Part shown: positions 1 to 31,526 of the stretch, one piece after another | Layout of the letters: the number at the start of each line of letters is the position of its first letter | Position numbering within the stretch: the first letter of the stretch is position 1 | Assembly: GCA_000004985.1 (NCBI GenBank) | Contig: GG738912.1 | DNA: 64,000 bases | DNA from: Naegleria gruberi | Lineage: Eukaryota | Reading direction: 5' to 3' (one strand) | Made by a program: the position numbers and the translations under genes | The notes under the pieces: model-generated | What the model saw: the letters and a program-made list of their open reading frames with translations, nothing else | Database searches by the model: none | What the model was told of the DNA's origin: nothing

Positions 1-959
1 CAGTTGGAAATTGTGGTTTTTGGTTCATTATTAGAATTTCCATTTTGAGAGTTATTCGAAACCTCAGGGTAAGTTTCATTACAGCTAATTTTGAATCGTG
101 AGCATTGTTGGGATGTTGGTGGAACGTAAAAACCAGTATACATGTTATCTAACTTCCATGAATCATCAGATTGTTTTGTCCAACTCTATATTTGAAAGAT
201 AATTCAAAATTCCAAAATAGGTAAAATAAAAAAATACATGAAGAAAACCTACCGAACTTTCTTGTGTATAATCCCCACATGGTCCTGTATAATTGTACTT
301 GAAATTACTCAATTCCACAGTTCCATTAATTTGAATATTAGCACAGCTGTGATAGACACTTCCACATAATTCTGAGTTGCCTGTTTTTGTGGTTGGATAG
401 GAACAACAACCTGATTGTTTATCAGTCATTGGGTTGGTTAATGAGATGGAACATTTTTGGCATTTGATATTTGGAATGTCAACTAAATATTGGTAAACTT
501 TTAGAGAGCTACTGTCTGATTGATCATTGTGTGGAATGTGATCGATCAAAATGTACTTTTCATAATTGGAATCAGAGTTGATACTCAGTGCAATACGAAA
601 GGGAGCTCCTGTATGTGAAATTGTTTCTTCAAATTGAAGAATTTGCTTTCCTGGTTGAAGAATTGTAACTGGTTGACCATTTCCAAAGAATTCAACACCT
701 CCACATGGATAACTTTTTAATCCAGAATCTGATGTTCTTGGTCTAGTAGTATTTCATTCAAAATCGTCCAATTTCATGTTTAATATTTTTAATAATTTAC
801 AATTAATAATTAATTTACATGATTGTTGATATTTTAATAGTATTTTAAACACTCACGTTGGATATTTCCATCTAGCATGCCCACTAACTGATGAAATCAT
901 AAACATTCCGATACACAAAAAGAGGAAAACCAACTGTTGTGAAACTGTCATTTTTTTCA
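1..959 (-). CDS. secreted protein whose predicted mature N-terminus is His (histidine-brace / LPMO-like candidate); 3 exons; 3' end runs off the window
   Basis: ATG at 959-957 encodes MKKMTVSQQLVFLFLCIGMFMISSVSG (signal peptide) followed by HARWKYPT. A GTGAGT donor at 856 and introns 743-856 and 186-252 (GTAGGT..ATAG) keep one reading frame through ORF 166-549 and on into 1-185. The downstream part is Cys-rich (…GAPFRIALS…, CCSYP…). Exons are 959..857, 742..253 and 185..1. Confidence 0.55.
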
Positions 960-1051
960 TGAATTGATTTGTGATACTTGGTTATTGATCTTTACAATCT
1001 AGGTTTTTATTTACAAATATTGTTGCAAAAACGATGGTTTTGTTAGCAATC

Positions 1052-1420
1052 TCATGGCATGGCAACAATCTCTGCATGGCTTGGTAACTTCAACGTGCCA
1101 ACTAATCTTTCCTCTTCAGAACTCAACAAGACGTCAACATTTCTGCCAAACCATTCACAGGGTATTTCCACCTTAAAGTAAAACGAAGATGATTGTGGTG
1201 CGTAGCATTGTGAGAAGATGGTTTTGTTATTATCTCGGAGGGTCATGCGAATTTTGAAGAGATCTTGTTCTTGTTGAATGAGACATCGTAAATCGTACGG
1301 ATATCTATTCGAAATGTGAATATCTGCGAGTGGCTTATCATTGTGAAGGTCAATGTCTGTGAGTTTTAGTTGAACTTGTCTTGTGTTTTTGATGGTTGGT
1401 GGAGAGGTGAATGCTGTCAT
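1052..1420 (-). CDS. hypothetical protein (122 aa)
   Basis: Clean ATG-to-stop ORF flanked by AT-rich spacers; no recognisable domain. Confidence 0.4.
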   Translation of the reverse strand: MTAFTSPPTIKNTRQVQLKLTDIDLHNDKPLADIHISNRYPYDLRCLIQQEQDLFKIRMTLRDNNKTIFSQCYAPQSSSFYFKVEIPCEWFGRNVDVLLSSEEERLVGTLKLPSHAEIVAMP

Positions 1421-1720
1421 GATATTGTTTGTTTTTTTTCACATAAAGTTTCCTCGCTCTCCTATTTTGCCGAACCTTTTCGTATGTTTTCTGATTATTT
1501 GGTTCGGTTGCCTTTTATGTGAAAAAATTCATATTGTAAAAAAATGTTATATACTAATAAAGTAAGCATGAAAATAATGATCAATAATTTTTTTACCAAC
1601 CATTGCCACAAATAGATAAAATGTGAATATACAATGAGCTCTTCACAAGCACAAATAGGCTAGAGCCTCAAAAGGCAAAGCAATTATAATCCATGCAAGT
1701 AGATGTCCATTAATGTTGAA

Positions 1721-3172
1721 TTATTCATCTATTACAATTGAAACATCAGAGAAATGTCCAATATTTGATTGTATATGATACTTCAATCTAGTCTTGGTCA
1801 GGTTGTCTGTGGCTTTGAGAATTTGCTTACTGAGGAATGATTTACCATGATACGGAGATCCACTTTCCAGTAAAGCTCTCAAAAATAGAACATTTTCCTC
1901 CATGTCAACTAGATTGACCACATAGTAAGGCACTACTTCATGGTATTTTCTACACAATATCCAAAACTTGCTGAAGAAGTGTTCAAAAACTCGAAGAGGA
2001 TCAGTACTGTTTCCAACAAAATCTGGGAATATGGATTGTACATCGATGGATCCTGAAGAGATTCGCTTGGAAAAGATATCTGCCTTTGTGAAAACCAGTA
2101 CTTTTTGAGTGCCAGGATCTGTGAGTGTTGTATAGAATTTCTCCAGGTAATCAGTCACAAATGTTGTCCTCTTGCTCTTCTTCTTATCAATATCAGATAA
2201 GGGTACAAGGAAGAGCACAACTGGAGCTGATTTAGTATGATAGGATTGAGCCAGATTGTACACTCTGGGCTCTGTTTTGATTCCCCAAGAGAATTTTCCA
2301 TACTTGACACCTTGTTCTCTATTCTCAGTAATGTGTTTGTCATTTTGTGGATTACTAATGTCAGGTGCAAAGAACCTATCCTCGAGATAGGTCTTGAGGA
2401 GATATTCCACAATCTTAATACTTCCATTCTTCATATCTTTTTCAGATCCTTGAATAGTAATAGGCCTTTTCATTATAAAACTCAAATTATCCAACAAGTC
2501 AGCAATATTCTCTCCTCTAATATTTGGATTTGATTGTGCATAGCCATACTTATCATTGGAAAATTGAAAGAATGGTGTAAAGTATCCACAATCCAACAAC
2601 CTCTGATACGTACTCTTAATAGCAGGAATCATCCAAACAGTACTCAAATTATCAATCATTCCATTCACTCGATGAGTATCCAATAAACTATCCCAAATAC
2701 TATTCTCTTCAATAATTTCCACCTGTCTACCAAATGTATTCTTAATATCAGCATATTCACTTCCGAGAGATGAAGATCCCAACATTTCTGATGCGTTACT
2801 TGCTGATGAATAGCCATGAACCGAATGATTATGTTGATTCAGCTTTAATTCATTCAAAATTAATTGCATTGTCTTTAAACAAGTTTGTAAGACTTTGAGC
2901 TGGAATTGATAGCCGTACGAGGTAGATTCATTCGATGGAATGGGGAAGCCTGTGATGAGTGAAGTAATTGGTCCAGATGAGCCGAGAGATGATGATGAAG
3001 AAGGCTTTGCTTTTCCAGTTAACAAATCCAAAAGATCAGCCTTTCGGATCAATCTCAACAAGGTTGATTTACCACTATATGGCGATCCAACAATCACTAC
3101 TCCATAATTAAATTTACAAAGGAGAGTTGCTGCTGGATGAAATGTTTCTATTAAATTGTAATTATTATCCAT
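1721..3172 (-). CDS. divergent G-protein alpha-subunit-like protein (483 aa)
   Basis: P-loop VVIVGSPYSGKSTLL aligns to the G-alpha G1 motif KLLLLGAGESGKST. VVLFLVPLSDID matches the AIIFCVALSDYD region, and VLVFTKADIF matches the G4 motif ILFLNKKDLF. The switch II DVGGQ motif is replaced by LAQSYHTKSAP. An S-rich insertion lies in the helical-domain region. Confidence 0.6.
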   Translation of the reverse strand: MDNNYNLIETFHPAATLLCKFNYGVVIVGSPYSGKSTLLRLIRKADLLDLLTGKAKPSSSSSLGSSGPITSLITGFPIPSNESTSYGYQFQLKVLQTCLKTMQLILNELKLNQHNHSVHGYSSASNASEMLGSSSLGSEYADIKNTFGRQVEIIEENSIWDSLLDTHRVNGMIDNLSTVWMIPAIKSTYQRLLDCGYFTPFFQFSNDKYGYAQSNPNIRGENIADLLDNLSFIMKRPITIQGSEKDMKNGSIKIVEYLLKTYLEDRFFAPDISNPQNDKHITENREQGVKYGKFSWGIKTEPRVYNLAQSYHTKSAPVVLFLVPLSDIDKKKSKRTTFVTDYLEKFYTTLTDPGTQKVLVFTKADIFSKRISSGSIDVQSIFPDFVGNSTDPLRVFEHFFSKFWILCRKYHEVVPYYVVNLVDMEENVLFLRALLESGSPYHGKSFLSKQILKATDNLTKTRLKYHIQSNIGHFSDVSIVIDE

Positions 3173-3477
3173 ATTACTATTAATATTTTAAAAACTATTA
3201 GTATGATGATGATTAGGTTTTTAATCAACGTTGATGTTATTAGTTTGTAAATAAATTAATTAATTAATTAGTTGTTATTGTTGTTGTACAATTAGAAATT
3301 ATGATGGAATATTATTCTGTGGTTTTTTAAAGATAAAAAAGATTCCAAGTCAAACACGATAACAAACGAGCGGATGGTCTCTTTAAAACACACAAGGATT
3401 CTTATGAAGATGAGGAACAACAAGAGTTTCAAATTCAAAAATTAAACAAAATATTATCTTTAATAATAACTAGTATT

Positions 3478-5373: not shown

Positions 5374-5964
5374 TCATTCATCACTGATGGTGGTTTCTAA
5401 ATCAGTTTGGTCTGTAGGAGATCTTCTGAAAAAGACAACTCGCCAAAACTGTTTCGAACCAAACCAAGTTTCCAACCATCCAATGTCTTCCGGAGGAGAA
5501 TTAATGAACCACTCAAACCACACATGACACAGAGCTAATCTTACAATCAAATAACTGAACACTCCAAAAGGGCAAGCCATAAGTGTCAACATTATAATAC
5601 CACAGGTGATGATGTGTGGAATTTTCCTACTGATGGCATCATTGTAAATGAAAATTGCACACAATGGATCAGTAAATAAATAATGTATCCATCCTACTAG
5701 TGCAAATGGCTTTTGAGCAAATCCATCATTTACCAATGATTCAAAGGAGAGGAAGTTTATCATTTTCGGAGTTGTGGCCATAACCATCACTAGTAAAATG
5801 GCATAAATAATGGATACGATGCACATCATGATTTTTGAATTGATGATAAATTTAGTAATCTTGGTATTGGGAAGAATTATCATCGGCGCCAAAACAAAAC
5901 CAGGTGTCAGGTTAATAATCCAATACATCCAACTCAGTGCTTCATTACTAGCTGGGAATGACAT
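5374..5964 (-). CDS. multi-pass membrane protein (196 aa), function unknown
   Basis: ORF with 4–5 hydrophobic helices (e.g. IMMCIVSIIYAILLVMVMA, IITCGIIMLTLMACPFGVFSYLIV). Confidence 0.5.
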   Translation of the reverse strand: MSFPASNEALSWMYWIINLTPGFVLAPMIILPNTKITKFIINSKIMMCIVSIIYAILLVMVMATTPKMINFLSFESLVNDGFAQKPFALVGWIHYLFTDPLCAIFIYNDAISRKIPHIITCGIIMLTLMACPFGVFSYLIVRLALCHVWFEWFINSPPEDIGWLETWFGSKQFWRVVFFRRSPTDQTDLETTISDE

Positions 5965-6028: not shown

Positions 6029-7779
6029 TTATTGCGTTGGATCAAAGAATAAAACCAAATCCACTCGATTCTTGGGATTAGGGGAGGTGGTAAAAAGAGT
6101 ATCCTCAGAATCGTCAAATTTTCGAATCCATAATGCAAATTTTCGTAACGTTTCGCTGTCTACTTCTTGTATGTATATTTGCAATCGATCTTTGAACAGA
6201 CCTTTCTTTGTGCTCGTTAACTTTCGTTCTCTCTCACTTGGTAATAAGGTAAAATCGAATAGCTCATTATTAAATGTTATTGTTCTCGAATGGTTATCTT
6301 GGTTCTCTATGAATGACAGGTAAAATACGTTGGTATCCTTATATCTGGGACGCGAGGGATTATGTGGAAAGTGGATATCCACAAAACGTTGTTTAGCTAT
6401 TGGTGCAATATCCTTATGATGTACCAAGTTTTTCAATACTGTTTTTGTCAATTCCTTTCCATAATTCGTTCCACTATTTGGTTCATTCATCATGAAACAA
6501 GTTACAATAGCTCCGTGATATTGTTCATTTCTTTTAAACAATGCAGAGAGAATGTAAAATCTTGTTAAAATGTGAGAATTCTTCACAATGCTCAGAATAC
6601 AGTCATCGTCTCCAAAGTGTTTGGCCAATTCTATCAGCTTAAGCTTTGCTTCACAATCGGGTAGTGAACCATCAAGCAAATATTTTACATAGCTATTGAA
6701 TGTAGGCATTATAATAGGAGTTCTATCTTTGAAAGAGGAATTTCCAATATCAATAAAAACATTTGAATTTTTTTTGAGAATTGGGTGGTAATCTGTCAGT
6801 ATCTTTGAAAAGAACTTGGACCTTTTCAAATGCTTTACACATAAATTGTGATATTGATTTTCATAGCCAATCAAAAATTCTTTCTCTGGATCTAGAGTTT
6901 CATTCAGCTCTGAAATGATTTTGCCTTCAGGGAATTGTGCATGAGCAAAGTTCAACTCTGGTTCATCAAAAAAGAACTCTAAATCCACCGATCGATTTCT
7001 TGACTTGGAGAGCCAATAATTCGATGCTCCCAAATTCTGTTCCACTCCAACTCCTGTTAGATATTTAATTCCTACTTGTATCTGAGCTGCAACATCATCT
7101 CTCTTTGCTGCTTTCAAATACAACTCAAATGCTTTTTTGTAATCTTGTTTTACATGAATTCCAAATTCGTAAAATATTCCTAGGTTGTATATTGCATCCG
7201 AATCACCAATTCCAGCATACTCAGAATACCATTCAAACTCTTCACTAAAATCACGTTCCATTCCTTGAGAAAACATGAATAATCCAGAGGATTTAAAACG
7301 TCCAATTGCACTATTTGATTTTTCAAACCATTGCATAGCCATCATTACATTTTCCTTAACAACTTTTCCCTTCTCAAAGAAGGTTCCAATCTTGTATTTG
7401 GAAATTTCATCACCTTGTTCCGAGGCTTTCATATACCATTCCAATGCTTTTTCATAACTTTTCTGCACTCCCTTTCCTTCATCATACAACCATCCAATAT
7501 TAAACTGAGCATGAGCATCACCCTGTTCAGCAGCCTTCCAATACCACTCAAATGCTTTAACATAATCCTTTTCACTCCTCTTCCCTCCTCAAACAACAAT
7601 CCAACATTGTATTGAGCATCGGAATGTCCCTGCAAGGCTGCTTTCATATACCAATGCATTGCTAAGGCACAATCCTGCTTTACTCCATCAGAACCCTCAT
7701 CAAAACAAAGCCCCAAATTATATTGAGCATCAGCATCACCTTCCTCAGCTTGTTTAAGGTAAAGATCGAGCGCGGACAT
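6029..7779 (-). CDS. Sel1-repeat + BTB/POZ domain protein, interrupted by one frame break
   Basis: ORFs 7429-7779 and 6029-7489 both read as Sel1 repeats (…AEQGDADAQYNLGLCFDEG…, …GDAHAQFNIGWLYDEGKGVQKSYEKALEWY…). Adding one A/T to the T4 run at 7569-7572 restores GVKKDYVKAFEWYWKAAEQGD and joins them. The C-terminal third resembles the BTB region of the paralog at 10613-12228. Confidence 0.6.
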
Positions 7780-10612: not shown

Positions 10613-12228
10613 GGGAGGAATTTCATAACAGAGGAGAACACGCAAAAGGCTTTGATTGTTTTTGTAAAGGTTATGAAATACACAAATCCAGCGAGTTGGA
10701 GCATGCAATTGGTTGTTGTTATACATTCGGATTGGGAGTTGAAAAGGATTATTCTAAAGCAAGGGAATGGTATTTGAAAGCTGCTGAAAAGGGATTTGCA
10801 AATTCACAAAATAATCTTGGTATGATATATGAAAATGGATTAACTGTTGAAAAGGACTTGGCTGAAGCACTGGAATGGTATTTGAAAGCTGGTGAAAATG
10901 GTGATCTAACTGCTCAAGTAAATCTTGCTCGGCTCTACCGTGACGGTGAGGGAGTTGAACAAGATTATTTGAAATCATTCGAATGGAATATGAAAGCTGC
11001 TGAAGCTGGGGATGCAGAAGCTCAAGTTCACATTGGCTATGCATATGATAAGGGTCTAGGAGTTGAACAAGATTTTTCGAAATCATTCGAATGGAATTTG
11101 AAAGGAGCAGAAAATGGGAGCCTAGATGGTCAATTTAATGTTGGACTTTTATTGGAACTGGGGGATGGAGTTGAAAAAAACATCAAGAAATCTGTGTTTT
11201 GGAAATCAAAGTGTTTTAATAGGTCAAAATGTTTTGACTTTGTAGAAGAACCTTACGAGCAGTTTGCTATGCAATATTTTACATCAAATACTGAGGATTG
11301 GAATCAATCCTCACCAAATAGTGACAAAGAACACGTAGTCGTACGATTTGAAGAGAAGGATTTCACACTTTCACAAAAGCATTTAAAGCATTCAAAATAT
11401 TTATCAACCATGATGAATTCAAATTGGAAAGATTTCAATGTCAAAGAGAAAAACCGAACCATACTTGATTTGAGAACCATTCAAAATGATATATTTCAAG
11501 AACAAACAGATATCATTCAAATATTTAATAATTATGTGAACTACTTAACAAATGAAATATTACCACCAGATTTTGACATGAAATTGAAATTAATTGAACT
11601 GTCAAGATATTTACAAGATGACGGATGTATATTGAATATTGTCAAAGAAGCAAGTATTCTGCAGAGATTTTACATTCTTTTGATATTAGAAATTATTGTT
11701 GAACCTATTCACATTGCAATTACTAGTTGTTTTGCAGCAGAAACTAAATTTAAAATCAATGATCTCTCAGAAAATGTTATTGAAAAATTACTCACTCAGT
11801 CTGGCCTATCTCAACATGGAAAGGACGAGATTTATAATGTATTTAAAGAAAAATTCAATGGATATCCTATAGCAATCAGTAAGTTGATCTATATTCAATT
11901 CTAATTTTTCCAACTTAATTTAGATATGAATATTCTTCATGTAACATTTTCAACGCTTAAAGAGAAGAAACTAATTCATTTCAATCAAGAACAAGTCGAA
12001 TTTTCTTTGGAATTGGGTAAAGATATCGATAACACTATTTTCAATATCAACAGCTCGCATGATGTTCAATTCTTTGGAAAGAATGCCAAGTTATATATCC
12101 AGATATCGAGTAGTGTTGATGGAGTATATGGATTTTGGTTGGATAACAGTTCTGAAAAAGGAAAAACTATTTTCATTTTACCTGAGATTAACTTTGAGGC
12201 ACTTAACTTGATTATAATGACTACATAA
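10613..12228 (+). CDS. Sel1-repeat + BTB/POZ domain protein; multi-exon with the 5' exon not located
   Basis: Sel1 repeats (AEKGFANSQNNLGMIYENG…, GDAEAQVHIGYAYDKG…) are followed by a BTB-like block (EHVVVRFEEKDFTLSQKHLKHSKYLSTMMNS). The frame is open from a TTTTAG acceptor at 10612 with no in-frame ATG before it, so an upstream exon is implied. Intron 11879-11924 (GTAAGT..AATTTAG) joins ORF 10696-11904 to ORF 11926-12228. Confidence 0.55.
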
Positions 12229-12792: not shown

Positions 12793-15700
12793 TTACTTTT
12801 TATTGAGCAATGAAAGCGAGGATAAAAGGGCAACACCAGTTTTTCTTTCCTCTCCGTATTTGAATTGTCTAGTTACAAGGTTGAGTCGTTGATGGAATTG
12901 TGACTTGAGGACAGCTCGTTGTTTGGCAGTGAGGAATCTTCTTCCAATTGCTTGAATTGTTGTGGTAGATGATAAAGTTTGTTCAGAAAATTGAGTGGTC
13001 TGTTTTCTTGTAAAGGAACCTCGCAGCAAACCTTGGATAGTTTGTAAATTCTCATTCTTGATGCTTAATTCAACTCTCGTTCTTGATCCCTCAATTGCTG
13101 ATCGAATAGTGAACACCTTATCCGTTATACTCTTGAGTGATTTGGCTTGTTGAATTTGTCTGACTCGGGCTTGCAATAGCGAAATACTACTCAGAGCAAA
13201 TTCAAATTCATTCCTCTTATTGTGACACATAAAGAGAAGAGCGACAGTGTTAGATAACTCCTTCATATCAGTGAGACTCCCTCTCGTTTCATGACCATAA
13301 TACAAGCTCTGAAGATAGTTGGCAGAGTCAGAGACAGTTCTGAAATCTTCATTGACAAATCGTCCTCTAATAATACTCTGCAATGCGTTAATATATTGAA
13401 TGTTGGTATTAAGATCTCTGATTGCAATCTGTTGTTGCATGAGTGATTGAATGGATTCTGTGAGTATTTGCATTTTTTTGAATTCTTGTCTTGTTTGATT
13501 GGCTCTGTAGAGGGCAATGATCATATTTCTAGAATCGAGTAGAGAATCTCTGTCCTCATTAAAAGATCTTTTCACTAGGTTTGACCTGAAAAAGGTCTGA
13601 ATGACAATTAGTCCGCTCATTTTCATATCTCTTTGTTTGAGAGTTGTGAAAGTTCTCACCCTTGATTGAAAGATTTTCATATCTTTCTTTTTCTGATATG
13701 TTTTGAGAATGGTAGTCTTTCTTTCCAATAAGGATTGTAAAACAGTGGCCAGAGTGATAGACTTGCTAAAAGATCTTCTTGCAAGTTGCGATTTGAAGAG
13801 AGCTTGAATGATAGCAATATTTTCTCTGGTTTTTTCAATTCTTCTTTCTTCAGACATTCTATGGACAATAGATTGAATTGTTTTGATGGATTCGGTTGTG
13901 GTGGACGATTGTCTCCTGGTAGAAATTCCATGTAAGCGAGTTGTGACAATTTGAACTTTGGTCATAGAATTTGCATATTGTTTTCTAACTAGACTGGAAC
14001 TCATGAAGGTTGAAATTAAATCCATTTGAGAGGATATTCTTTCGAAAGTCTTCAATGCTAGTTGTTTTCTGCACAAGGACTGAATGTGAGTGAGAGAATT
14101 GATAACTTCTTCTCTACTGGTTCTCGCAGAATATCCTCTTGATGCAGCTTGGAGAGTACCAACACGTTGTAATTGATTTTCATGATTTTTCCTATCTGTA
14201 TTTCCTCTGGCAGCATTTTGAATTATAGTAATTGAATAGTATCTCCTTTCGTTTTGGTATTCTTGTTGAATTGAACGGCTTCTACAGACAGCTTGTAAAT
14301 TAAGAATATGCTTTTCGATACGTGATCTTGTGGAGAGTTGAATGAACCCCTTAGCAAATGATGTGAAAATCTGCAATCTCTCCTGTTCAAGGGTGGTTGC
14401 ATTTCTTTGACTTATGCCATTCCATAAAGATTGAAGTAAAATGACTTGATTGATAGAAGTAGCTTTTTCGTCTTTGGCTTGTTTTCTTCTTAATAGTGAT
14501 TGAAGAGCACTAACGTCTTGAATAGCTTCAGCATTTTCCCTACGTTTGTATTTACCTTGAAAAGCTGCTTGGATGGTGACTAAATCATGTTGAGCTCTTT
14601 CATAACCAGATCTCACAAGGACTCCTTTGGCAAGAGCATGTACATACTTGGTAAATGTTTGGAGTGCATGTATGTTTGATCTTTCCTTGTTTGCTCTCAC
14701 TAATGCTTGAATCATTTGAGTGGCATTCCTATCAATAGGAGAATAATTGTTCTTTTTAGATGATTTGTTTCTAATCAAAGCTTGCAAGACAATAATCTTG
14801 TTAAGGGTTTGATTTTTCAACATGTTGATATTTCTAGAATTAGCCAGTGCTTGTAGAGAAATTAAATCTGAAATGTGTTGCTTTCTGCTCTGTTCTTCAG
14901 CTTTTCTCCTTACCAATGCTTGCAATACTATGATACCAGAACAATCCATGTGAGTCGTGCTTCCTCTTAAAAAGGCTTGAATTATTGTTATATTTTCTAG
15001 TTGCTTTGATTCTATGTTTTGCATTGCAGAGGATCTACATCTAGCTTGTATTGCTAATACTGCATTCTTGGATATTTCAAACTCTGCTCTTGTAAATCTA
15101 TTTCTGATTAGTGACTGGATAATTTCAATATTGTTTAAGGAGTTTTTTACCAATAGTCTGGTCTTATTTCCTCTAAGGAAGGCACAAACCATTGAACTTG
15201 AACTAGTTTGTTTATCCAATTTCTTTTGTACTATTTTTGATCTTATTAATGATTCCAAAGTTTCCAATCTTTTCAAATCCAATTTCATCTTGGCAGCTTC
15301 AGATGATTTCCTAATAGTACTTTGAAGATTGGTAACAAATGCCATGCTGGTTTGAGCTAGTCTTCTTTCCATGCCTGATTGTATTAATGCATGAATAAGA
15401 TGAACACTCTCAATAGGGGATGCATGTTCAGTCCTTTCCTTGTGAGAAATTATTAAATTTTGTATCATGGAGACTGCTTCAAGTTGGTTAAGTTTGCTGG
15501 CAACTGTTGAGCTTGATCTAAAAGCAGATTGAATGGTAATAATTTGATTCTGCATGCGATTTCTACTAGTTCTTTCTGTATTACCTTGTAGCAAGGCATG
15601 CAATAGATTCACTCCACCTCTAATTTTTTGTTCATTAAACTTCCTGATAGTGGCTTGAGCAACAACCAACTTTTGAATATAAACCCTGCCATGGGAATTG

Positions 15701-18700
15701 TTCCTAACAATATGTCCTCTAATAAGAGCTTGCAAACTTGAAATTCGCTGCTTTTCACTCTCCAAACTAGCAGACACAAGGTTGGATCTTGCTGCTGATT
15801 GTATAATTTGAATTTGTTCCATCAATTTAAGCTTGACTTCTCTTTCTATGCATCCTTGGTTTAGTGTTTGAACAATTGTGGCAACATCTCTAAAAGCAGA
15901 CATTTGGAGCTTTTCAACCAGAGATTTTCCAAGTGATTGAAAGGTCAAAATAGCATCTTTTTGTCTACCATCGTTGACCCTTGTAAAGTGGCCAACTACA
16001 GCGCTTTGTATTATCTTGGTATTTCTGATTGCCTTCTCGGTTTCCCTACATTTCAAGAATCTCCTGACCAAAGATTGCATTATTTCCACCAAGTCCCTTG
16101 TTAAGTAAAAGGTTTGCCTTAATGATCTACCTTTAAAAAAAGATGCAAGGGTATTACTATCCTCAAAACGGTTCCTTACCAGAGCTGACTGTAACAAGGT
16201 TGAAATAATATCTATTTTGGACTTTTCTTGTTCCGCTAATCGCCTTGTGTTGAATGACCTAGCACTCAATGAAAGGATAGAAATCATGTCCAAATGAGCT
16301 TGTTTGCTTGTCATTACATGTTTTCCTCTGATTGCACTCTGAATTACAAGCACTTTGGTTAATTGATACATGTCCACATGGTTATTTCCACGTCCTCTGA
16401 AGAAGGCCTGAATATTAGTGATACTATCATGTACATGTGAAAAATTCTTCCTTTCCAAATATCCTCTAATGAGAGCTTGCTGAGTGTTGATGTGGTTTTT
16501 GGTAGGTTGTAGATTTTTTCTCTCATCTCTTCCTCTCATGCTAGATTGCAAATTGATGATGTAAATTGTGTACTGTTCATGTTGTGCACGTAGCGTGTGA
16601 GAAAGAATGAGAGATTGTAAAATCTTGATGTTGTTGATGCATGTTTCCGATTGTTTTCTATTGATGTATGCTCTTCCGAATGTTTCAACTAAAAGAGAAG
16701 AGTCAATCAAGTCCTGATGTTCCTTCAACTTTGCATGTCCTCTTACCACAGCTTGAACATATTTGGTGTTGTTTGAAAGGGTTGAAAGGTGAGCCTTTTC
16801 CAATTTGCTTCTTATACGAGCTTGTAAAGTTTTGATCTTGTTCAATTCATTGATGAAATCTCCTCTACAGAAAGAGGATTGTAAAAAACCTTGTACGATT
16901 TGAACATTTTCTACATTTTCAATAAATTTGTTCTCTGTCAATTGTCTTCGGGAAAGTGATTGAATAACAGTAACATATTCATTAACACTGCTTTCTATTT
17001 TCCTGGCTATAAAACCACGTACCGAAGCTTGAAGAGTCAAAATGTTATAGTGGTTATGTCTAAAGGATTTGATTTCATTCTTTTTACGAATGTTGGATTG
17101 CACCAACAATACGTTATTCATTTGTTTCTCTTGTTCTTGAGTTATTAAAAAGGTCTTGACTCTTGCCTGAAGAGTTATTATTAAACTCTTATTTTGTGAA
17201 AATTCCTTTCGTGCAAAGTTTCCAAATAAAACAGATTGGGTATTCACTAAATCTTCTCTTCTGGCAGATAAATCTTTTCTTGTGAGATAAGATCTAGCTG
17301 CAGTTTGAATCATTCTCAAGTTCGCAACACTGTTTCTAAACAAGCATCTTGTTTCGAATGTCCTTAAAAGTGCCTGAGTAAAACAGATTCTAATTAGTTC
17401 ATTCTTATGCTCCAAACGTTGCACATGACCTTTCATGAGAGAACCTAATATATTTGAGCTTTCAGTTGTGTGTTTAACAAGTTGATTTTCAATTTTTCCT
17501 TGATATAATGTTTGAATTTGATGGGCCAAATTAATTTTAACTTGAAAACCACGTCTAGTCTGTACGCCTCGCAGCCATGATTGTATAGTCGAAACCTTTC
17601 GTTGAGTTTGGTGCATCAATGAACGGTTTAGCTTCCCTGAGAAAGACGCTTGAATACTATTGATGGCATTAATTCGATGCTTCAAATCAATTCTTCCCAA
17701 ATGTCCCTTGATTGAATGCTGTAAAGTTTGAACAGCATTTTGCAAGGAATGCTTATTTACTTGCTCCAATGTGCCTCTTGCTCTTGACTGAATTAGATGG
17801 GCAGCATTTCTCGTATCATAAAATTTCATCTGTCCACTGTGGCCACGAGCCAAAGAGGTCAAGAGAAGTGCCTTATCTAAATCCGTGCAAGCTTGCGAAG
17901 CGGTATTAATGCTCCTTAATAGAGTTTGAAGAAGCAACACACCCTTTTTAAGATCTGTATATTCCTTCCTTCTTGCGACAGCGTCAATTAAAGTTTGTAG
18001 GACAAGCACGTCCGATTTATACCTTTGGACTACCTTTTGTTGTTCTAGTCCACGACCATTGGCTTGAAGAAGGGAAGCAACTTGCACATATTGAGATAGG
18101 TCCTTTCTTACAAATAAAGATCTTGAAACAGGTTGAACAAGGATAGCAACGTGTTTCTTCTTTTTAAAGTCTAGGAATACCTTTCTTGCACAACAAACAG
18201 ATTGAATTAAAGTGGATGCATTCAACGCTGAATCTTTGAATTTCTGAATCAATTTGGCTCTTATAAGCGATTGTACAAGTGTAATTCTATTACATTGTTC
18301 TTTAAAGGTTGTACGAGCATTGAAACCCCTGATTGCACTATCCATAATCAAACATTTTGAATTCAAAGATTTTCTGTTTCGGTATTCGATAAATCTTCTG
18401 GAAAGCGTTTGAATGGTAGTAATGTCATTGATTAGATGGTTCAAATTGGATTGGCATTGCTTGACCCTTATCAAGGTCTGTATTGCTTGGATATTAGAAA
18501 TTTCCTTAGAGGAGTCTTGTTTCAAAAGTATTCTCCTGATCAATGCCTGAAGTAATGGAATGGATTCACTAGTGGTTTGATATTTCTTTCTCTGATTGCA
18601 TCCTAGTATCGTAGATTGAATTACTTTGATATTTTCCATAGAAAGAGTAAAGCATTTAGCTTGTTGTCCAGCTCTGAATAATCCTTGGATTACTACAGCA

Positions 18701-21700
18701 GAGTCCAAACTTGTTGTGAGATTAGTTCTTTCCAATCTTCCAACTAATGCTGCATTGAATAGATGAGCCAAATTTCGGAGCAATTGCAGGTTTTTCCTAC
18801 TAACATTAGAAGACATCATAGCTTGCAAAACCTCAATTGAGGAGGAGAAGATTACCATTTCCTGCCTGTCAGAAGAACCCTTGATGGATGCTTGCAGAGT
18901 GAGTAAAAAATTCTCCAATTGGCTCACTTCCTTCATTGCTGCTCTTCCTCTAACAAGACTTTGAAGCAATATTATCCTACTTGTCAAAACCGAACGAGAA
19001 TGTTTAACTGATAATGCCTTGGAAAGAGCTGTAAATATTTCGGATCTATCCAATTCGAATCTATAAATTTGTCCTTCTCCTTTGCCTCTGCAAAAGCTTT
19101 GCATTATCTGTATGGCTTCCTTCTTCGATTGTAAATCTTTTTGCTTATGATGTCTCCTTACAAGTGACTGTAAAGTAATGATTTGTTGAATATTGTGTCT
19201 TGTGAAGGAGACTAATAATCTAGACCTTGAAATAGACTGAAGAATTACAATTTGTTGAATATTCTTTGCAAAACAACCTCTTTCAAGTTTTGATCTGGAG
19301 AGCGATTGAATACATTCCAAGTTCAACTTGTTAGAATTGAAATCTTCTTGTTGGTATCTTCTTCTGTGCCAAGTTTGAACGGTGAGAGCAGTAACCCTCA
19401 TCAGATTGAATGTCTCTCTGATTCTATTAGACTCGCACAACACTGCAATGTTTGAAAGGGCTTGAGTCCTGAACACCTCAAAGGCAAAGAGTGAACAAAC
19501 TCTAATTAACTCTGCATCCTCGACAAGTCTTTGGTCTTCCATGATTTCGTCCTCCTCTCCAAAATAAGGTCTCATTCTCGGTATTTCACAATTGTCAGGA
19601 TAGCAATCATAATTAAATCTAACTACAGCCTCCATGAACTCGATAATGAAAAGTGGAATATACTTGAAATCAAGTGGGAATAGCCGTATTTCGTTCAAGT
19701 ATGGGAAGAGTTGTACTTGAACCCATATCAACAAAAGGGGAACCGTAGATTTTGCATCTTCTTCTACCACCTCATCTACCTTTTTGCTTGTTGTCGAATA
19801 GTAATGTTCATTCATTTTGGTGAGAACGGATTTAAGTTTTTCTCCATCATAGTGAACCAGTAGAGCTTCGTGGAAAATGTGTGAGAGAGGGTGTTCATCT
19901 CCAATTTTCATCAATGACTTGTAATTTTCCACATACTTTTCTGCATCTTCGATTGATATCTTTTCAGAAATCAAGTCAACTATACCTCTAACATTATCAC
20001 CTCTAGGATCTAATTTTTCAATTTCCTTTCTCAAAATTGCTGGGGTTAGTTTGGATTTAATCTTATCCAAAGAAGTAGGTTCCTCTGGGAATTGTATTCC
20101 TTCTTCATCTGAAATTTTTTCAATTTCCGATTGGTCTGATGATGACTCTCTGCCATGTCTCTTCAGTGGAGGTTCTTCATAATTTGCCAGAGATTCTAAG
20201 GATGTAACCTTAGCCATATCAGTGGATGTTGGTGTTGAAGGAGTTTTTGCCTTTTTGGCAAACTTGTTGAAAAAACTTTTGATTTTTTCACTTTTTGTCT
20301 TTTTTCTTTCTAATAGTTGACTACTTGTCAATGCTATTTGCGTATTACTATATGTTGATTCATCATCATCAAGTGTATCCAAACTCTGTCCTACAGAACG
20401 GCTGAAATTATTGTTTCTTGCTGGTGCTGATGCAACAGAAAATGCAGTGAAATTACTGTGAGAAGAAATTGTATCAAAAAGATCATCCCTTTCCACAGAT
20501 CCCTTCCCATCCATTAGACTGATTTTAAATGATTTGGATATATTCATGGCTTGAGATCTTCTGACTGGACTCTTTGGAGTTGTTGAGCCAGAAGCTTTTT
20601 CAGCCAGCTCTGAAAAATTGACACCCTTTCTTCTTTTCTGAGACAAATCTTTGTGTACTCCATTAAATTCTGTCAACTTGACTAGAACTTCACTCACCTC
20701 ACTATTAACATGAGAATGGGTTGTGGTTGTACTTATTTGAGAGGCAAAGGTGTGAGTATATTGTGAATATTGAGATTCTTCTGGTGATACAGGTGTTGCT
20801 GTTTCCTTCTTTTTTCTTTTTAATTTTGTAATTATGGAAGGCAACTTTCCTAGTAGAGATTTTGATCTTCCTTTCGTGGTTTCCTTTGTTATTGGAACTA
20901 CTATAGAGGGAACAACAACTAGAGGTCCTTGAAAATTATTGTTTGCTGATGCTGATGTATTACTGGTACCAGTATGATTAGGTGTATTTCCACTAGAAAT
21001 ATCCGATGTATTCATATCATCAAAATCATTGTCAGATTCATTCTCCTCTCCTTGCATATCATTCTCTGTAATATCATCAAATGATGCTCCATACACTCTA
21101 TTGCCATGTTGAACATTTTGAGTTGATGGTGTAATGCTGGATGCACTTGGTGGTGGTGAGGGTCTTCCTCTTGGTGAAAATTCATTCCTTGGAGAACGAC
21201 CATTTGGCATGATTGACCTAGGTGATAATAAGTTACCTCCTCTCGGAGTGTATAAATTGTGAGCTAGTGAATGTGATCGATGTGTACGACCACCACTCTT
21301 GGATGAAGATGTTGTAGATGCAAGTGAACTCTTATTTGAATTATTTCTAAATCTACCAACAGGTCTATTCTGTACAGGTGGTTTACTAATTACTATGGCT
21401 ACAGGTGTGGAGGAATTAATTGATGGTGAATTATCGCTATTATTGTTGGTTTGTTTACTCGATGTTACTAAATTATTCGAATAGATTATTACTCCTCCTC
21501 CATTAGTTGAAGAAGTACTTGTTCCATTCTGATTATTAGGTATTTGTCTATAGAAGGAAGAAGATGAATGTAGGGATGTATTGCTATTATTGTTACTATT
21601 ATTGAAAAGGGATGCTGGATTGGAATTTTGAATGGCAGAAAGTTTTAACTGGGGAATGACAGCAGGTACTCTTTTCGAGGAAGTAGAAGAGAAGGTAGAT

Positions 21701-22275
21701 GCATTAGGTGGAGTGGATGGAGAAATTGGTGAAAAGGTCGTGTTATTACTTCCCTGAAGATGATGAAGATTTGAGGCAAAATTGGGACTTGATGACTGAG
21801 AACGATGTCTTGGTGATAATGTCGATGATGAAGACAATGAATTGGCAAGTGATAAATTAGAAGAACCCACATTCCGTAAAACTGAAGAAGCCGAAAGTAT
21901 TCCTCCTCCTACTCCTCCTGGTGAATTCGAGTTATCCAAACATTGACTATTACCTATCGATAATTGACCTCCATTATTATTATTATTACTAATAATATTA
22001 TTATTAATCGAAGCAGCAATCAATCCTCCAATATTATTATTATTATTATCCATAATACTATTATTTAAATTAATTGTTCCTTGTTGTTGCACACTTGTCG
22101 GCGATGATACAACAACAGATGCAGATGCACCTCCTCCTCCTCCCTGAGCAGACGAAGAAATACTTCCATTGAAAAGAACATTTTGTGCAGCTGCTGATGA
22201 TGATAAATTGGCGGCGGGAAGTAAATCTTGATGGAGGCGGGAAGTGATTTTTTCGGGATTTATCGAATTTCCCAT
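12793..22275 (-). CDS. giant IQ-motif array protein (3160 aa), ASPM/Asp-like architecture without recognisable CH or motor domain
   Basis: Uninterrupted 9.5-kb ORF. The N-terminal ~700 aa are S/N/G-rich and disordered. A ~250-aa globular region follows (…LLIWVQVQLFPYLNEIRLFPLDFKYIPLF…). Then ~2100 aa consist of degenerate repeats with ~23–27-aa period matching the IQ consensus [IVL]Qxx[IVL]RGxxxR (e.g. IQSLVRRHH, IQALIRGHIVR, LQSLVRGRAAMK), running to the C-terminus. Confidence 0.75.
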   Translation of the reverse strand: MGNSINPEKITSRLHQDLLPAANLSSSAAAQNVLFNGSISSSAQGGGGGASASVVVSSPTSVQQQGTINLNNSIMDNNNNNIGGLIAASINNNIISNNNNNGGQLSIGNSQCLDNSNSPGGVGGGILSASSVLRNVGSSNLSLANSLSSSSTLSPRHRSQSSSPNFASNLHHLQGSNNTTFSPISPSTPPNASTFSSTSSKRVPAVIPQLKLSAIQNSNPASLFNNSNNNSNTSLHSSSSFYRQIPNNQNGTSTSSTNGGGVIIYSNNLVTSSKQTNNNSDNSPSINSSTPVAIVISKPPVQNRPVGRFRNNSNKSSLASTTSSSKSGGRTHRSHSLAHNLYTPRGGNLLSPRSIMPNGRSPRNEFSPRGRPSPPPSASSITPSTQNVQHGNRVYGASFDDITENDMQGEENESDNDFDDMNTSDISSGNTPNHTGTSNTSASANNNFQGPLVVVPSIVVPITKETTKGRSKSLLGKLPSIITKLKRKKKETATPVSPEESQYSQYTHTFASQISTTTTHSHVNSEVSEVLVKLTEFNGVHKDLSQKRRKGVNFSELAEKASGSTTPKSPVRRSQAMNISKSFKISLMDGKGSVERDDLFDTISSHSNFTAFSVASAPARNNNFSRSVGQSLDTLDDDESTYSNTQIALTSSQLLERKKTKSEKIKSFFNKFAKKAKTPSTPTSTDMAKVTSLESLANYEEPPLKRHGRESSSDQSEIEKISDEEGIQFPEEPTSLDKIKSKLTPAILRKEIEKLDPRGDNVRGIVDLISEKISIEDAEKYVENYKSLMKIGDEHPLSHIFHEALLVHYDGEKLKSVLTKMNEHYYSTTSKKVDEVVEEDAKSTVPLLLIWVQVQLFPYLNEIRLFPLDFKYIPLFIIEFMEAVVRFNYDCYPDNCEIPRMRPYFGEEDEIMEDQRLVEDAELIRVCSLFAFEVFRTQALSNIAVLCESNRIRETFNLMRVTALTVQTWHRRRYQQEDFNSNKLNLECIQSLSRSKLERGCFAKNIQQIVILQSISRSRLLVSFTRHNIQQIITLQSLVRRHHKQKDLQSKKEAIQIMQSFCRGKGEGQIYRFELDRSEIFTALSKALSVKHSRSVLTSRIILLQSLVRGRAAMKEVSQLENFLLTLQASIKGSSDRQEMVIFSSSIEVLQAMMSSNVSRKNLQLLRNLAHLFNAALVGRLERTNLTTSLDSAVVIQGLFRAGQQAKCFTLSMENIKVIQSTILGCNQRKKYQTTSESIPLLQALIRRILLKQDSSKEISNIQAIQTLIRVKQCQSNLNHLINDITTIQTLSRRFIEYRNRKSLNSKCLIMDSAIRGFNARTTFKEQCNRITLVQSLIRAKLIQKFKDSALNASTLIQSVCCARKVFLDFKKKKHVAILVQPVSRSLFVRKDLSQYVQVASLLQANGRGLEQQKVVQRYKSDVLVLQTLIDAVARRKEYTDLKKGVLLLQTLLRSINTASQACTDLDKALLLTSLARGHSGQMKFYDTRNAAHLIQSRARGTLEQVNKHSLQNAVQTLQHSIKGHLGRIDLKHRINAINSIQASFSGKLNRSLMHQTQRKVSTIQSWLRGVQTRRGFQVKINLAHQIQTLYQGKIENQLVKHTTESSNILGSLMKGHVQRLEHKNELIRICFTQALLRTFETRCLFRNSVANLRMIQTAARSYLTRKDLSARREDLVNTQSVLFGNFARKEFSQNKSLIITLQARVKTFLITQEQEKQMNNVLLVQSNIRKKNEIKSFRHNHYNILTLQASVRGFIARKIESSVNEYVTVIQSLSRRQLTENKFIENVENVQIVQGFLQSSFCRGDFINELNKIKTLQARIRSKLEKAHLSTLSNNTKYVQAVVRGHAKLKEHQDLIDSSLLVETFGRAYINRKQSETCINNIKILQSLILSHTLRAQHEQYTIYIINLQSSMRGRDERKNLQPTKNHINTQQALIRGYLERKNFSHVHDSITNIQAFFRGRGNNHVDMYQLTKVLVIQSAIRGKHVMTSKQAHLDMISILSLSARSFNTRRLAEQEKSKIDIISTLLQSALVRNRFEDSNTLASFFKGRSLRQTFYLTRDLVEIMQSLVRRFLKCRETEKAIRNTKIIQSAVVGHFTRVNDGRQKDAILTFQSLGKSLVEKLQMSAFRDVATIVQTLNQGCIEREVKLKLMEQIQIIQSAARSNLVSASLESEKQRISSLQALIRGHIVRNNSHGRVYIQKLVVAQATIRKFNEQKIRGGVNLLHALLQGNTERTSRNRMQNQIITIQSAFRSSSTVASKLNQLEAVSMIQNLIISHKERTEHASPIESVHLIHALIQSGMERRLAQTSMAFVTNLQSTIRKSSEAAKMKLDLKRLETLESLIRSKIVQKKLDKQTSSSSMVCAFLRGNKTRLLVKNSLNNIEIIQSLIRNRFTRAEFEISKNAVLAIQARCRSSAMQNIESKQLENITIIQAFLRGSTTHMDCSGIIVLQALVRRKAEEQSRKQHISDLISLQALANSRNINMLKNQTLNKIIVLQALIRNKSSKKNNYSPIDRNATQMIQALVRANKERSNIHALQTFTKYVHALAKGVLVRSGYERAQHDLVTIQAAFQGKYKRRENAEAIQDVSALQSLLRRKQAKDEKATSINQVILLQSLWNGISQRNATTLEQERLQIFTSFAKGFIQLSTRSRIEKHILNLQAVCRSRSIQQEYQNERRYYSITIIQNAARGNTDRKNHENQLQRVGTLQAASRGYSARTSREEVINSLTHIQSLCRKQLALKTFERISSQMDLISTFMSSSLVRKQYANSMTKVQIVTTRLHGISTRRQSSTTTESIKTIQSIVHRMSEERRIEKTRENIAIIQALFKSQLARRSFSKSITLATVLQSLLERKTTILKTYQKKKDMKIFQSRVRTFTTLKQRDMKMSGLIVIQTFFRSNLVKRSFNEDRDSLLDSRNMIIALYRANQTRQEFKKMQILTESIQSLMQQQIAIRDLNTNIQYINALQSIIRGRFVNEDFRTVSDSANYLQSLYYGHETRGSLTDMKELSNTVALLFMCHNKRNEFEFALSSISLLQARVRQIQQAKSLKSITDKVFTIRSAIEGSRTRVELSIKNENLQTIQGLLRGSFTRKQTTQFSEQTLSSTTTIQAIGRRFLTAKQRAVLKSQFHQRLNLVTRQFKYGEERKTGVALLSSLSLLNKK

Positions 22276-30083: not shown

Positions 30084-31526
30084 ATGTTCGCAGAGGAAAC
30101 TCATGGTCATTACCATGATAAAAAGAAGACGAAACTCGCCAAAGATAATGTTGACGAAATGATTGAAATTGAAATGCCAAATAATGCAAATAACAGCAGT
30201 AGTGGAAACGGAGATGTGGCTGGACAACAAACAGTAATGCATAGAATTGGTTCTTCTCCGACCTTTAGTCCAGTTTCTGTTCCTAGGTTAAATGTTTCGT
30301 ATGTGGATCAAGCTACTCGAGAGTGGCAATCGGATTTTAAACAATTTCCTCTAGTGGATACAGCCAATATTTCAAAGAAGGAAGTTGTAGAGTTTTACGA
30401 AAAGCAAAATGAAATGGTTGATGAATATTCGAAACTTTTCAAATCCAAGTTGGAGCATTCGGACGAAACTACAACTGAAGGCGATTTGACAGGACGTTCT
30501 GTTGCCAATGAAGCTGCTTTCGAACAGGAAGAACATATTACACCTGCCATGAAAAGATTAGAATATTGGTGCATTCACTTGTCATTTTGGACAAACGTTT
30601 GTTTATTTGTGTTGAAATGTTCTGCGAGTATCTTATCAGTTTCTCTCTCAGTTATTACATCCACAATTGATTCTGCTTTGGATTTATTATCTGGTTTGAT
30701 TATTTATATTACTTCATTGTATAGAAGAAGAAAGAATGATATTTATCAATATCCAATTGGTAGAAATAGATTGGAACCAATTGGTTTTGTAATTTTTGCT
30801 ACTTGTATGTGTACTGCAAGTTTGCAAATTATCAAGGAAGGTTTATCTCAAATCGTGACAGGTCTCATTACAGGTGATGTTTATATTAATGCAAATAGCT
30901 CAGATGATTCAAATGCTGAAGTTGACTGGATGTTTGGTATTATGATTCCTAAATATGTTGCCACTATTTTCTATTGGTATGGTATTGGTGTCCTGTTGGC
31001 AACCATTCTCATCAAATTGGCTCTCCATTTGATTTGTAGAAGAGTTAAACATTCTCCTTCAGTTATTGCCTATGCATTCGATCACAGAAATGATGTCTTG
31101 TCTAATAGTTTGTTGCTTGTTTCCCTATTCTTGAGCAAATATTTGTGGTGGCTCGATTCTATTGGTGCTGTCATTTTGAGTATTTACATTATTAAGAGTT
31201 GGATTGACGAATCTTTGGAACATGTGACTAAACTTGTTGGTTTGACTGCTGATAAGGAATACATTCAAAAGTTGACATTCATGGCATTGAATCATAGTCC
31301 TCTAATTACTCAAGTTGATTCAGTAATGGCCTATTATTCTGGTGCCAATATGATTGTTGAGATTGATGTTGTCTTGCCAAAGGAAACTCCACTCTTGGAA
31401 TCTCACGACGTTGGTGAAACATTGCAAAAGAAGATTGAATCCTTGCCAGATGTTGAAAGATGTTATGTCCATTTGGATTATGAATTTTCACATACAAAGG
31501 ATTATGAACATGTCGTTAAGGATTAA
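30084..31526 (+). CDS. cation diffusion facilitator family transporter, Mn-type (DxxxD motif)
   Basis: Six TM helices; SASILSVSLSVITSTIDSALDLLSGLIIY…YQYPIGRNRLEPIGFVIFATCMCTASLQIIKEG matches the Mn-CDF (MTP8/11-like) TM2–TM5 consensus; C-terminal cytoplasmic domain present. Confidence 0.8.
   Translation: MFAEETHGHYHDKKKTKLAKDNVDEMIEIEMPNNANNSSSGNGDVAGQQTVMHRIGSSPTFSPVSVPRLNVSYVDQATREWQSDFKQFPLVDTANISKKEVVEFYEKQNEMVDEYSKLFKSKLEHSDETTTEGDLTGRSVANEAAFEQEEHITPAMKRLEYWCIHLSFWTNVCLFVLKCSASILSVSLSVITSTIDSALDLLSGLIIYITSLYRRRKNDIYQYPIGRNRLEPIGFVIFATCMCTASLQIIKEGLSQIVTGLITGDVYINANSSDDSNAEVDWMFGIMIPKYVATIFYWYGIGVLLATILIKLALHLICRRVKHSPSVIAYAFDHRNDVLSNSLLLVSLFLSKYLWWLDSIGAVILSIYIIKSWIDESLEHVTKLVGLTADKEYIQKLTFMALNHSPLITQVDSVMAYYSGANMIVEIDVVLPKETPLLESHDVGETLQKKIESLPDVERCYVHLDYEFSHTKDYEHVVKD

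Follow-up and report, generated by a model that had tools for sequence, protein, structure and literature searches.

Can a protein lose the switch of a G-alpha subunit and still be kept as a gene? The question is raised by NAEGRDRAFT_74226, which lies on the minus strand of a 64,000-nucleotide stretch of Naegleria gruberi DNA (contig GG738912.1 of assembly GCA_000004985.1), the whole of which is called the window here. By exact-sequence look-up, the open reading frame (ORF) at positions 1721-3172 is identical to XP_002670753.1 (EFC38009.1, D2VYS7), a single-exon model annotated as "predicted protein". The initial annotation of this DNA had described the ORF as a GTPase-impaired or pseudo-G-alpha without the glutamine of switch II; that description is supported at the sequence level, and the loss proves to be wider than was noted. 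Our reading, to which we give a probability of roughly 60%, is that NAEGRDRAFT_74226 is a selectively maintained, single-copy gene for a G-alpha-derived, non-cycling pseudo-GTPase, one of many lineage-specific G-alpha paralogues in N. gruberi.

To judge from sequence comparison, the product is a genuine G-alpha homologue, though a highly divergent one. It matches the Pfam family PF00503 with 49.5 bits (E 4.3e-13; gathering score 48.8), the best stretch covering only residues 315-426, and a single-sequence search of the PDB returned a weak G-alpha match (E 0.023). A profile was built from four orthologues, those of N. gruberi, N. fowleri, N. lovaniensis and a source known from read set SRR15442441 (P0003), which together are called the family below. 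Searched against the PDB, this profile matched 107 distinct sequences, every one of them a G-alpha. We aligned the family by hhalign with a canonical reference set of 61 sequences, namely Gαi1 and 60 further canonical G-alphas, and also used three MAFFT strategies. The hhalign comparison gave a probability of 98.6% (E 9e-16), with query residues 24-411 placed on Gαi1 35-316 in a span that takes in the P-loop, the helical domain and the region from beta4 to alpha4. Identity to canonical G-alphas is only 15-20%; the Pfam and hhalign values nevertheless dispose of the objection, foreseen by the initial annotation, that the motif similarity might not be significant.

Canonical G-alphas (PF00503; human Gαi1 and N. 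fowleri Gα7, PDB 6NE6, among them) have a Ras-like domain into which an all-helical domain is inserted, and the Naegleria protein shares this architecture. The helical domain is present between alpha1 and switch I, where hhalign recovers the αA, LWxDxxxQ and NDSxxYxLxxL blocks, and VWMIPAIKSTY stands for Gαi1 LWKDSGVQACF. An AlphaFold2 (AF2) model computed on a multiple sequence alignment (MSA) of 112 sequences had a mean predicted local distance difference test score (pLDDT) of 70 and a predicted template modelling score of 0.65, with pLDDT >90 over roughly residues 320-430; it places helices 85-235 between strand 25-29/helix 35-51 and strand 318-324. When the model was compared with the PDB by Foldseek, the top 50 matches were all G-alpha chains, 6NE6 included. 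The order of the canonical blocks is likewise kept: P-loop, LW..P..K and GEN, the switch II tryptophan, beta4 LSDxD, [NT]KxD, FPxFxG, beta6 and alpha5.

Within this framework the switches are missing. The 61 canonical sequences never vary at R178, D200, V201, G202, G203 or Q204, and at least 90% of them have T181. The canonical switch I, RVKTTGIVE, corresponds to ...KNGSIK(---)IVEYLL in the N. gruberi protein, so that the Arg178 and Thr181 positions are taken by S251 and a deletion according to hhalign, or by K248 and S251 according to MAFFT. The orthologues read L/C/L and N/N/H at these two positions, which are not conserved, and neither hhalign nor MAFFT finds a conserved equivalent of the arginine finger and the magnesium-binding threonine (RxxTxGI) in any of the four orthologues. 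The initial annotation had called GIKTEP (residues 297-302) switch-I-like; in hhalign and in all three MAFFT modes W296-G-I-K instead falls on K-W211-I-H-C-F, which in Gαi1 belongs to the switch II helix.

Switch II has fared no better. The stretch DISNP at the position of DVGGQ contains neither the glycine nor the glutamine, its D271 is not conserved among orthologues, and DxxGQ is absent anywhere in the N. gruberi protein and its orthologues. The I281-x-E283-[DN] element in the 16-residue insertion that follows is an alternative candidate for beta3, likewise without DxxG. What is left of the switch II helix is a short remnant around W296, the counterpart of Gαi1 W211, which together with only three other columns is unchanged in all 112 aligned sequences; the orthologues read GKRRWCVKM, EKRKWCVKM and QRKWCVKV here, against ERKKWIHCF in Gαi1. 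The absence of DxxGQ had been noticed from the start, but the segment then named as its replacement, LAQSYHTKSAP (residues 307-317), overlaps a family-specific insertion that separates alpha2 from beta4 and is conserved less than any other stretch of the protein. In all, the consensus motifs G2, G3 and G5 are lost in the alignments, and the loss of catalytic and switch residues is seen in 4/4 orthologues by every alignment method tried. The product thus differs from canonical G-alphas in having no arginine finger, no switch I threonine and no DxxGQ, and in the insertions that flank its alpha2 remnant.

Both ends of the protein depart from the canonical form as well. The N-terminal amphipathic helix that serves Gβγ and membrane binding is absent with its lipidation site: the MDNNYN... 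start lies only 23 residues before beta1, residues 1-19 are non-helical in the AF2 model (pLDDT <50), and no MG or cysteine motif for myristoylation or palmitoylation was found, as had been stated initially; the N-termini of the orthologues are also without MG. At the other end, the receptor-coupling helix alpha5 is split by an insertion of ~19 residues in the N. gruberi protein and its orthologues, and a C-terminal tail follows, in which F474-S-D476 is invariant in the family. The orthologue consensus KNNLKN in distal alpha5 matches KNNLKD of Gαi1.

The elements that hold the guanine nucleotide appear, by their motifs, to have been retained. These are the Walker A sequence GxxxxGK[ST], a G4 motif TKxD with its specificity aspartate, and GEN at the lid of the helical domain. 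Three motif assignments of the initial annotation hold here: GSPYSGKST aligns to the G-alpha P-loop GAGESGKST and satisfies the Walker pattern, VPLSDID (residues 323-329) aligns to beta4 VALSDYD, and TKAD aligns to the G4 sequence NKKD. In the P-loop the family never departs from G29, S33, G34, S36 and T37. In G4 the lysine and aspartate are kept and asparagine, invariant as N269 in the 61 canonical G-alphas, is replaced by threonine; T362, K363 and D365 do not vary in the family and are shared by a Willaertia protein described below. In dynamin, among other GTPases, TKxD works as a G4 motif, and TKAD is plausibly a functional variant too. G220-E-N222 is family-invariant and aligned to the lid of Gαi1 (N-D150-S151). 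At G5 the canonical TCA(T) is not found; V419-N420-L421 is invariant in the family, and VVNL is common to the Willaertia protein.

The distribution of conservation follows the same division. Identity of the orthologues to the N. gruberi protein is 0.72 in the alphaG-alpha4 block, 0.62 in beta6 and the first part of alpha5, 0.58 in the P-loop and 0.53 around TKAD, and it falls to 0.37 in what remains of the switch II helix, 0.24-0.25 in switch I and the beta3/DVGGQ equivalent, and 0.04 in the insert after alpha2. The serine-rich linker after alpha1 is present yet variable in all orthologues. The single S-rich insertion that had been assigned to the helical domain is not confirmed in that form: one S-rich stretch is this linker, a second forms the αA-αB loop (residues 119-138), and since the orthologues have both, neither is an intron.

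The gene is under purifying selection. An environmental contig (ENA ERZ929261, PRJEB11402) is 98.9% identical to positions 220-3368 of the window over 3.1 kb, and the protein that it encodes is 99.6% identical to the product of NAEGRDRAFT_74226. The coding sequences of these two N. gruberi-like strains differ at nine sites, seven synonymous and two nonsynonymous, which gives a nonsynonymous-to-synonymous ratio (pN/pS) of 0.078 (binomial P 5e-4 versus neutrality). As a separate observation, the contig shows that the sample contained another strain close to N. gruberi. We also examined an intron at residues 264-317 as an explanation for the missing motif and rejected it: the region contains the family-invariant residues I281, E283, W296, K299, A316 and P317, and the only GT..AG candidate (about residues 304-316) is 37 nucleotides long and out of frame.

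Homologues of the protein are few. We searched 5.8 billion proteins by a word index and scanned 1.84 billion representatives exhaustively with phmmer, and the only homologues at E <1e-10 are the environmental copy, a gene and a fragment in N. fowleri, a gene in N. lovaniensis and the SRR15442441 protein, all of them unnamed or hypothetical. The N. fowleri orthologue is FDP41_012944 (full-length model CAG4717141, 514 residues), the fragmentary model is FDP41_013331 (E 1.3e-19), and the N. lovaniensis orthologue is C9374_009272. A word-indexed protein search with the family profile added no further members, and no relatives were found in bacterial and archaeal genome contigs or in a JGI metagenome scan. 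Pairwise identities among the orthologues are only 33-42%, even for N. fowleri and N. lovaniensis, whose proteins are 42% identical overall and 66% over the C-terminal ~160 residues. No synteny was found among the flanks of the four loci within ±4-8 kb. The low identity and non-syntenic flanks of the N. fowleri and N. lovaniensis orthologues suggest unusually fast evolution or relocation. A neighbour-joining (NJ) tree of the conserved blocks gave the topology (N. gruberi,(P0003,(N. lovaniensis, N. fowleri))) with 100% support for the family clade, which fits a single fast-evolving orthologue.

The next match is a protein of Willaertia magna, ABK040_002026 (KAL9653390.1, here P0007; JBEGDK010000054.1; 392 residues), which is sister to the family with 85% bootstrap support and only 37% identical to its closest canonical G-alpha. 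It shares with the family TKxD (as TKVD), VVNL, part of the alpha5 insertion (G..FIS..LL) and the C-terminal [FL][ST]DV tail. Unlike the family, it retains RVKTTGIVE and DVGGM, with methionine in place of the catalytic glutamine, and it is without the switch-region insertions, the S-rich linker and the GSPYxGKS motif. From these features it looks like an evolutionary intermediate toward the Naegleria pseudo-G-alphas. The family would then descend, within Naegleria, from an ancestor resembling the Willaertia protein, in which TKxD, VNL, the alpha5 insertion and a switch II reading DVGG-Met were already present; the catalytic glutamine would have been lost first, and both switches would have degenerated afterwards in Naegleria. 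This scenario is provisional, being weakened by the NJ method, by long branches and by a fungal fragment with TKxD that attaches nearby.

What might such a protein do? The G motifs G2, G3 and G5 are lost and intact orthologues occur in at least three species, a combination of lost motifs and maintained gene that would place it with the pseudoGTPases. Because the glycine that senses the γ-phosphate, the catalytic glutamine, the arginine finger and the magnesium-binding threonine are all missing, GTP hydrolysis and the "loaded spring" change of switches I and II are not expected, and the protein would be unable to run the GTP/GDP switch cycle. Similarly, having no N-terminal helix, no ordered switch II and no intact alpha5, it would not couple canonically to seven-transmembrane receptors, RGS proteins or Gβγ. 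Its role would be that of a static adaptor, one that probably holds nucleotide without hydrolysing it, and its working surface would be the conserved alphaG-alpha4-beta6 face with the C-terminal extension and not the switch regions. The constitutive binder or scaffold that the initial annotation had envisaged is speculation. We put the chance that guanine nucleotide is still held slightly above even, because G1, G4 and the lid motif are conserved.

Several points weigh against this interpretation. The fold match is partly circular, since canonical G-alphas dominate the MSA behind the AF2 model; residues 240-313 are without confident modelling, and AF2 run on the four-sequence family MSA gave a pLDDT of 44, which is unusable. 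The 42% identity and absent synteny of the N. fowleri and N. lovaniensis copies leave room for fast evolution or hidden paralogy, either of which complicates an argument from conserved function. Nucleotide binding is a prediction from motifs. The Walker A lysine (K35) is arginine in N. fowleri (GR[ST]) in three independent gene models, TCA of G5 has become VNL, and the magnesium-coordinating threonine is gone. Finally, some GTPases without the catalytic glutamine still hydrolyse GTP.

These points lead to a serious rival, improbable in our estimate and still the strongest of the alternatives: that the protein is a nucleotide-free scaffold, with no guanine nucleotide bound and with the P-loop and TKxD as structural relics, like Arabidopsis XLG2. 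The pocket may be empty because of the altered G5, the lost threonine and the lysine-to-arginine change in N. fowleri, to which the change of N to T in NKxD may be added, and plant XLGs with degenerate motifs work without GTP (PMC8584482). On this account, however, it is hard to explain why the P-loop, T362/K363/D365 and G220-E-N222 should be invariant at 33-42% overall identity if the pocket were unused, and the precedent of dynamin noted above applies to the G4 change.

A less probable alternative, which we disfavour, is that the protein is an active GTPase that works by a non-canonical mechanism, with catalytic residues supplied by the family insertions, by a GAP-like partner (GAP, GTPase-activating protein) or by dimerisation, as in HAS-GTPases or the Rap/RapGAP pair. 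The Willaertia sister protein, with DVGGM, is of the HAS type, the insertions contain conserved family-specific residues (I281, E283, A316, P317), and MAFFT puts K248 and S251 of the N. gruberi protein at the Arg178 and Thr181 positions. HAS-GTPases, however, retain DxxG, whereas here the whole motif is lost together with the γ-phosphate-sensing glycine; K248 and S251 are not conserved in the orthologues, and nowhere in the protein is conservation lower than in the switch regions.

The remaining possibility, that the ORF is a decaying pseudogene, a misannotation, a gene with an unspliced intron in the switch region or a chance resemblance to G-alpha, can draw on a Pfam score only 0.7 bits over the cut-off, the weak single-sequence PDB match and the low pLDDT of the switch region, but is effectively refuted: a pseudogene and an unspliced intron are rejected because of the pN/pS value, from a 483-residue ORF intact in two strains, and because of intact, collinear orthologues in N. 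fowleri, N. lovaniensis and the third source (invariant residues lying inside the supposed intron, which the initial annotation had named as a possible flaw, and the ORF being continuous and equal to the annotated single-exon model), while the hhalign, PDB-profile and fold matches point to G-alpha throughout.

The alpha5 insertion calls for comment of its own. It contains a second Walker-A-like motif, GSPYHGKSFLSKQILKAT, which is identical at 12 of 18 positions to the protein's own P-loop and start of alpha1, GSPYSGKSTLLRLIRKAD (positions 3035-3088, minus strand). This pair is the best internal 18-mer match, with a score of 48 that 0/200 shuffled sequences reached (their maximum was 38), and the top self-match in N. 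fowleri and P0003 is the same pair of motifs. The residue at the Walker position is lysine in both copies in N. gruberi and arginine in both in N. fowleri. The motif is conserved in 3/4 orthologues; N. lovaniensis reads GSPYGTRSF, and the Willaertia sister is without it. We do not take it for a second NTPase fold, because AF2 models the insert as helix-loop-helix with no strand before it. It may reflect a partial internal duplication or gene conversion, or it may be a functional mimic. That GSPYxGKSF and its helix have a function within the molecule, for instance as a pseudo-P-loop occupying the nucleotide pocket, gating it or binding phosphate, is a long shot in our view; if true, the alpha5 pseudo-P-loop would replace the lost switch machinery and constitute a new regulatory principle in the G-alpha scaffold.

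The features on which these arguments draw are collected in Table 1.

Table 1. Coordinates of NAEGRDRAFT_74226 and of elements within its product, as positions in the window
Feature	Residues	Positions	Strand	Basis
Complete single-exon coding sequence, with stop	483 residues	1721..3172	-	ORF list, exact-sequence look-up, upstream in-frame stop, Pfam G-alpha
G1/P-loop GSPYSGKST	29-37	3062..3088	-	Alignments; AF2 strand 25-29 then helix 35-51
Ser-rich low-complexity linker, alpha1 to helical domain	51-84	2921..3022	-	Identity 0.25; pLDDT <50
All-helical domain	85-236	2465..2920	-	hhalign; AF2 helices 85-115, 137-194, 223-235
Degenerate equivalent of linker 2/switch I/beta2, ...KNGSIKIVEYLLKTYL	244-263	2384..2443	-	Alignments; identity 0.25; low AF2 confidence
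G3 equivalent of DVGGQ, D271-I-S-N-P275	271-275	2348..2362	-	Alignments
Family-specific insertion, conserved I281-x-E283-[DN]	276-291	2300..2347	-	Alignments
Switch II helix (alpha2) remnant, GKFSW296GIKT = ERKKW211IHCF		2273..2299	-	Alignments
Non-conserved insertion between alpha2 and beta4	301-315	2228..2272	-	Alignment; identity 0.04; pLDDT <50
beta4, VVLFLVPLSDID = AIIFCVALSDYD	318-329	2186..2221	-	Alignments; AF2 strand 318-324, pLDDT >90
G4 T362-K-A-D365, putative NKxD variant	362-365	2078..2089	-	Alignments
Most conserved family block, alphaG-alpha4, FPDFVGN.xDPLRVFE..F.KFWI.CRKYHE	382-413	1934..2029	-	Identity 0.72; pLDDT >90
G5 equivalent V-V-N-L, for T-C-A-T	418-421	1910..1921	-	Alignments
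alpha5 insertion, second Walker-A-like motif GSPYHGKSFLSKQILKAT	438-455	1808..1861	-	Self-match, alignment
Distal alpha5 remnant and C-terminal tail		1724..1807	-	Alignments; AF2 helix 449-469

The gene model itself is simple. The coding sequence is one continuous frame from ATG to stop, an in-frame stop lies six codons 5' of the ATG, and the gap to the divergently oriented neighbour is only ~305 bp; this short gap and the upstream stop exclude an overlooked 5' exon. The window has a GC content of ~0.34 and is nuclear DNA of a heterolobosean amoeboflagellate, neither fungal nor amoebozoan; the right comparison group for NAEGRDRAFT_74226 should be the heterolobosean G-alphas, not the fungal and amoebozoan families with which an alignment had first been proposed. 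Four further ORFs of the window, looked up in the same way, also match N. gruberi proteins exactly, all from one 238,573-bp scaffold. Within the window, tblastn found no paralogue. The ORF at 49227-50678 (minus strand) likewise encodes 483 residues, and we considered and rejected it as a paralogue: it has no Pfam match, its sequence is unrelated, and the equal length is due to chance.

The neighbours of NAEGRDRAFT_74226 (Sel1-repeat, ABA4-like, IQ-motif giant, cation-efflux, Ras-like and USP7-like proteins) have no evident link to it that would give a functional clue. Sel1-repeat proteins are encoded at 6029-7779 (minus) and 10696-11904 (plus); at the former, ORFs 6029-7489 and 7429-7779 overlap and are both Sel1-like, and they are probably one gene split by an intron or a frameshift. 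A single ORF of 3160 residues at 12793-22275 (minus) has IQ calmodulin-binding motifs as its sole Pfam match, and the ORF at 33835-34896 (minus) encodes a Ras/Roc-family small GTPase domain (residues 158-312) after an unannotated N-terminal extension of ~155 residues. An ABA4-like membrane protein (5374-5964, minus), a cation-efflux (CDF) transporter (30084-31526, plus) and a USP7-like deubiquitinase (44721-47429, plus) are of housekeeping type.

Three known groups invite comparison. The first is the HAS-GTPases, in which a hydrophobic residue stands for the catalytic glutamine, DxxG is kept and activity persists. Loss of that glutamine and a G-domain that may serve as a binding module are common to these enzymes, to pseudoGTPases and to the Naegleria protein. 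The W. magna DVGGM protein fits the HAS description; the Naegleria protein does not, and is placed with the pseudoGTPases because DxxG is absent, either among those that bind nucleotide but are inactive or among the nucleotide-free ones.

The second group is the atypical G-alphas of Naegleria itself. N. gruberi is reported to have ~44 G-alphas (PMC8584482, a review), and according to that source, which cites Anantharaman et al. 2011 on atypical Naegleria and Dictyostelium G-alphas, some have deviant catalytic motifs and no N-terminal membrane-tethering residues; NAEGRDRAFT_74226 fits this account. In N. fowleri, 13 G-alphas are catalogued under AmoebaDB identifiers by Bosch et al. 2022, who characterised six of them, and among the papers searched for the accessions of NAEGRDRAFT_74226 none mentions them. 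Atypical G-alphas have thus already been reported from Naegleria, slime moulds and plants, and NAEGRDRAFT_74226 adds an uncharacterised, divergent paralogue and overturns nothing. It does so in a G-alpha repertoire that is among the largest known and in a genus in which the G-protein signalling of N. fowleri is being explored as a drug target.

The third group, the plant XLG1-3 proteins, offers the closest parallel. Like the Naegleria protein they are G-alpha-derived, have degenerate nucleotide-binding and catalytic motifs and are selectively maintained, and they act without a GTP cycle (PMC8584482). The likeness is an analogy, and the Naegleria protein is not itself an XLG: XLGs carry a long N-terminal domain with a cysteine-rich region and a nuclear localisation signal and still bind Gβγ, whereas the Naegleria protein has no N-terminal extension and retains an intact Walker A motif, and the two arose independently, in plants and in Heterolobosea. 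What role a non-cycling G-alpha fold plays is a question that the XLGs raise as well. To that question the Naegleria orthologous group may bring a natural series on the uses of the G-alpha fold beyond cycling, with stepwise loss of the switches, the P-loop and TKxD kept, and an apparent intermediate in Willaertia; among known systems the plant XLGs, different in architecture and origin, would be its best functional analogue.

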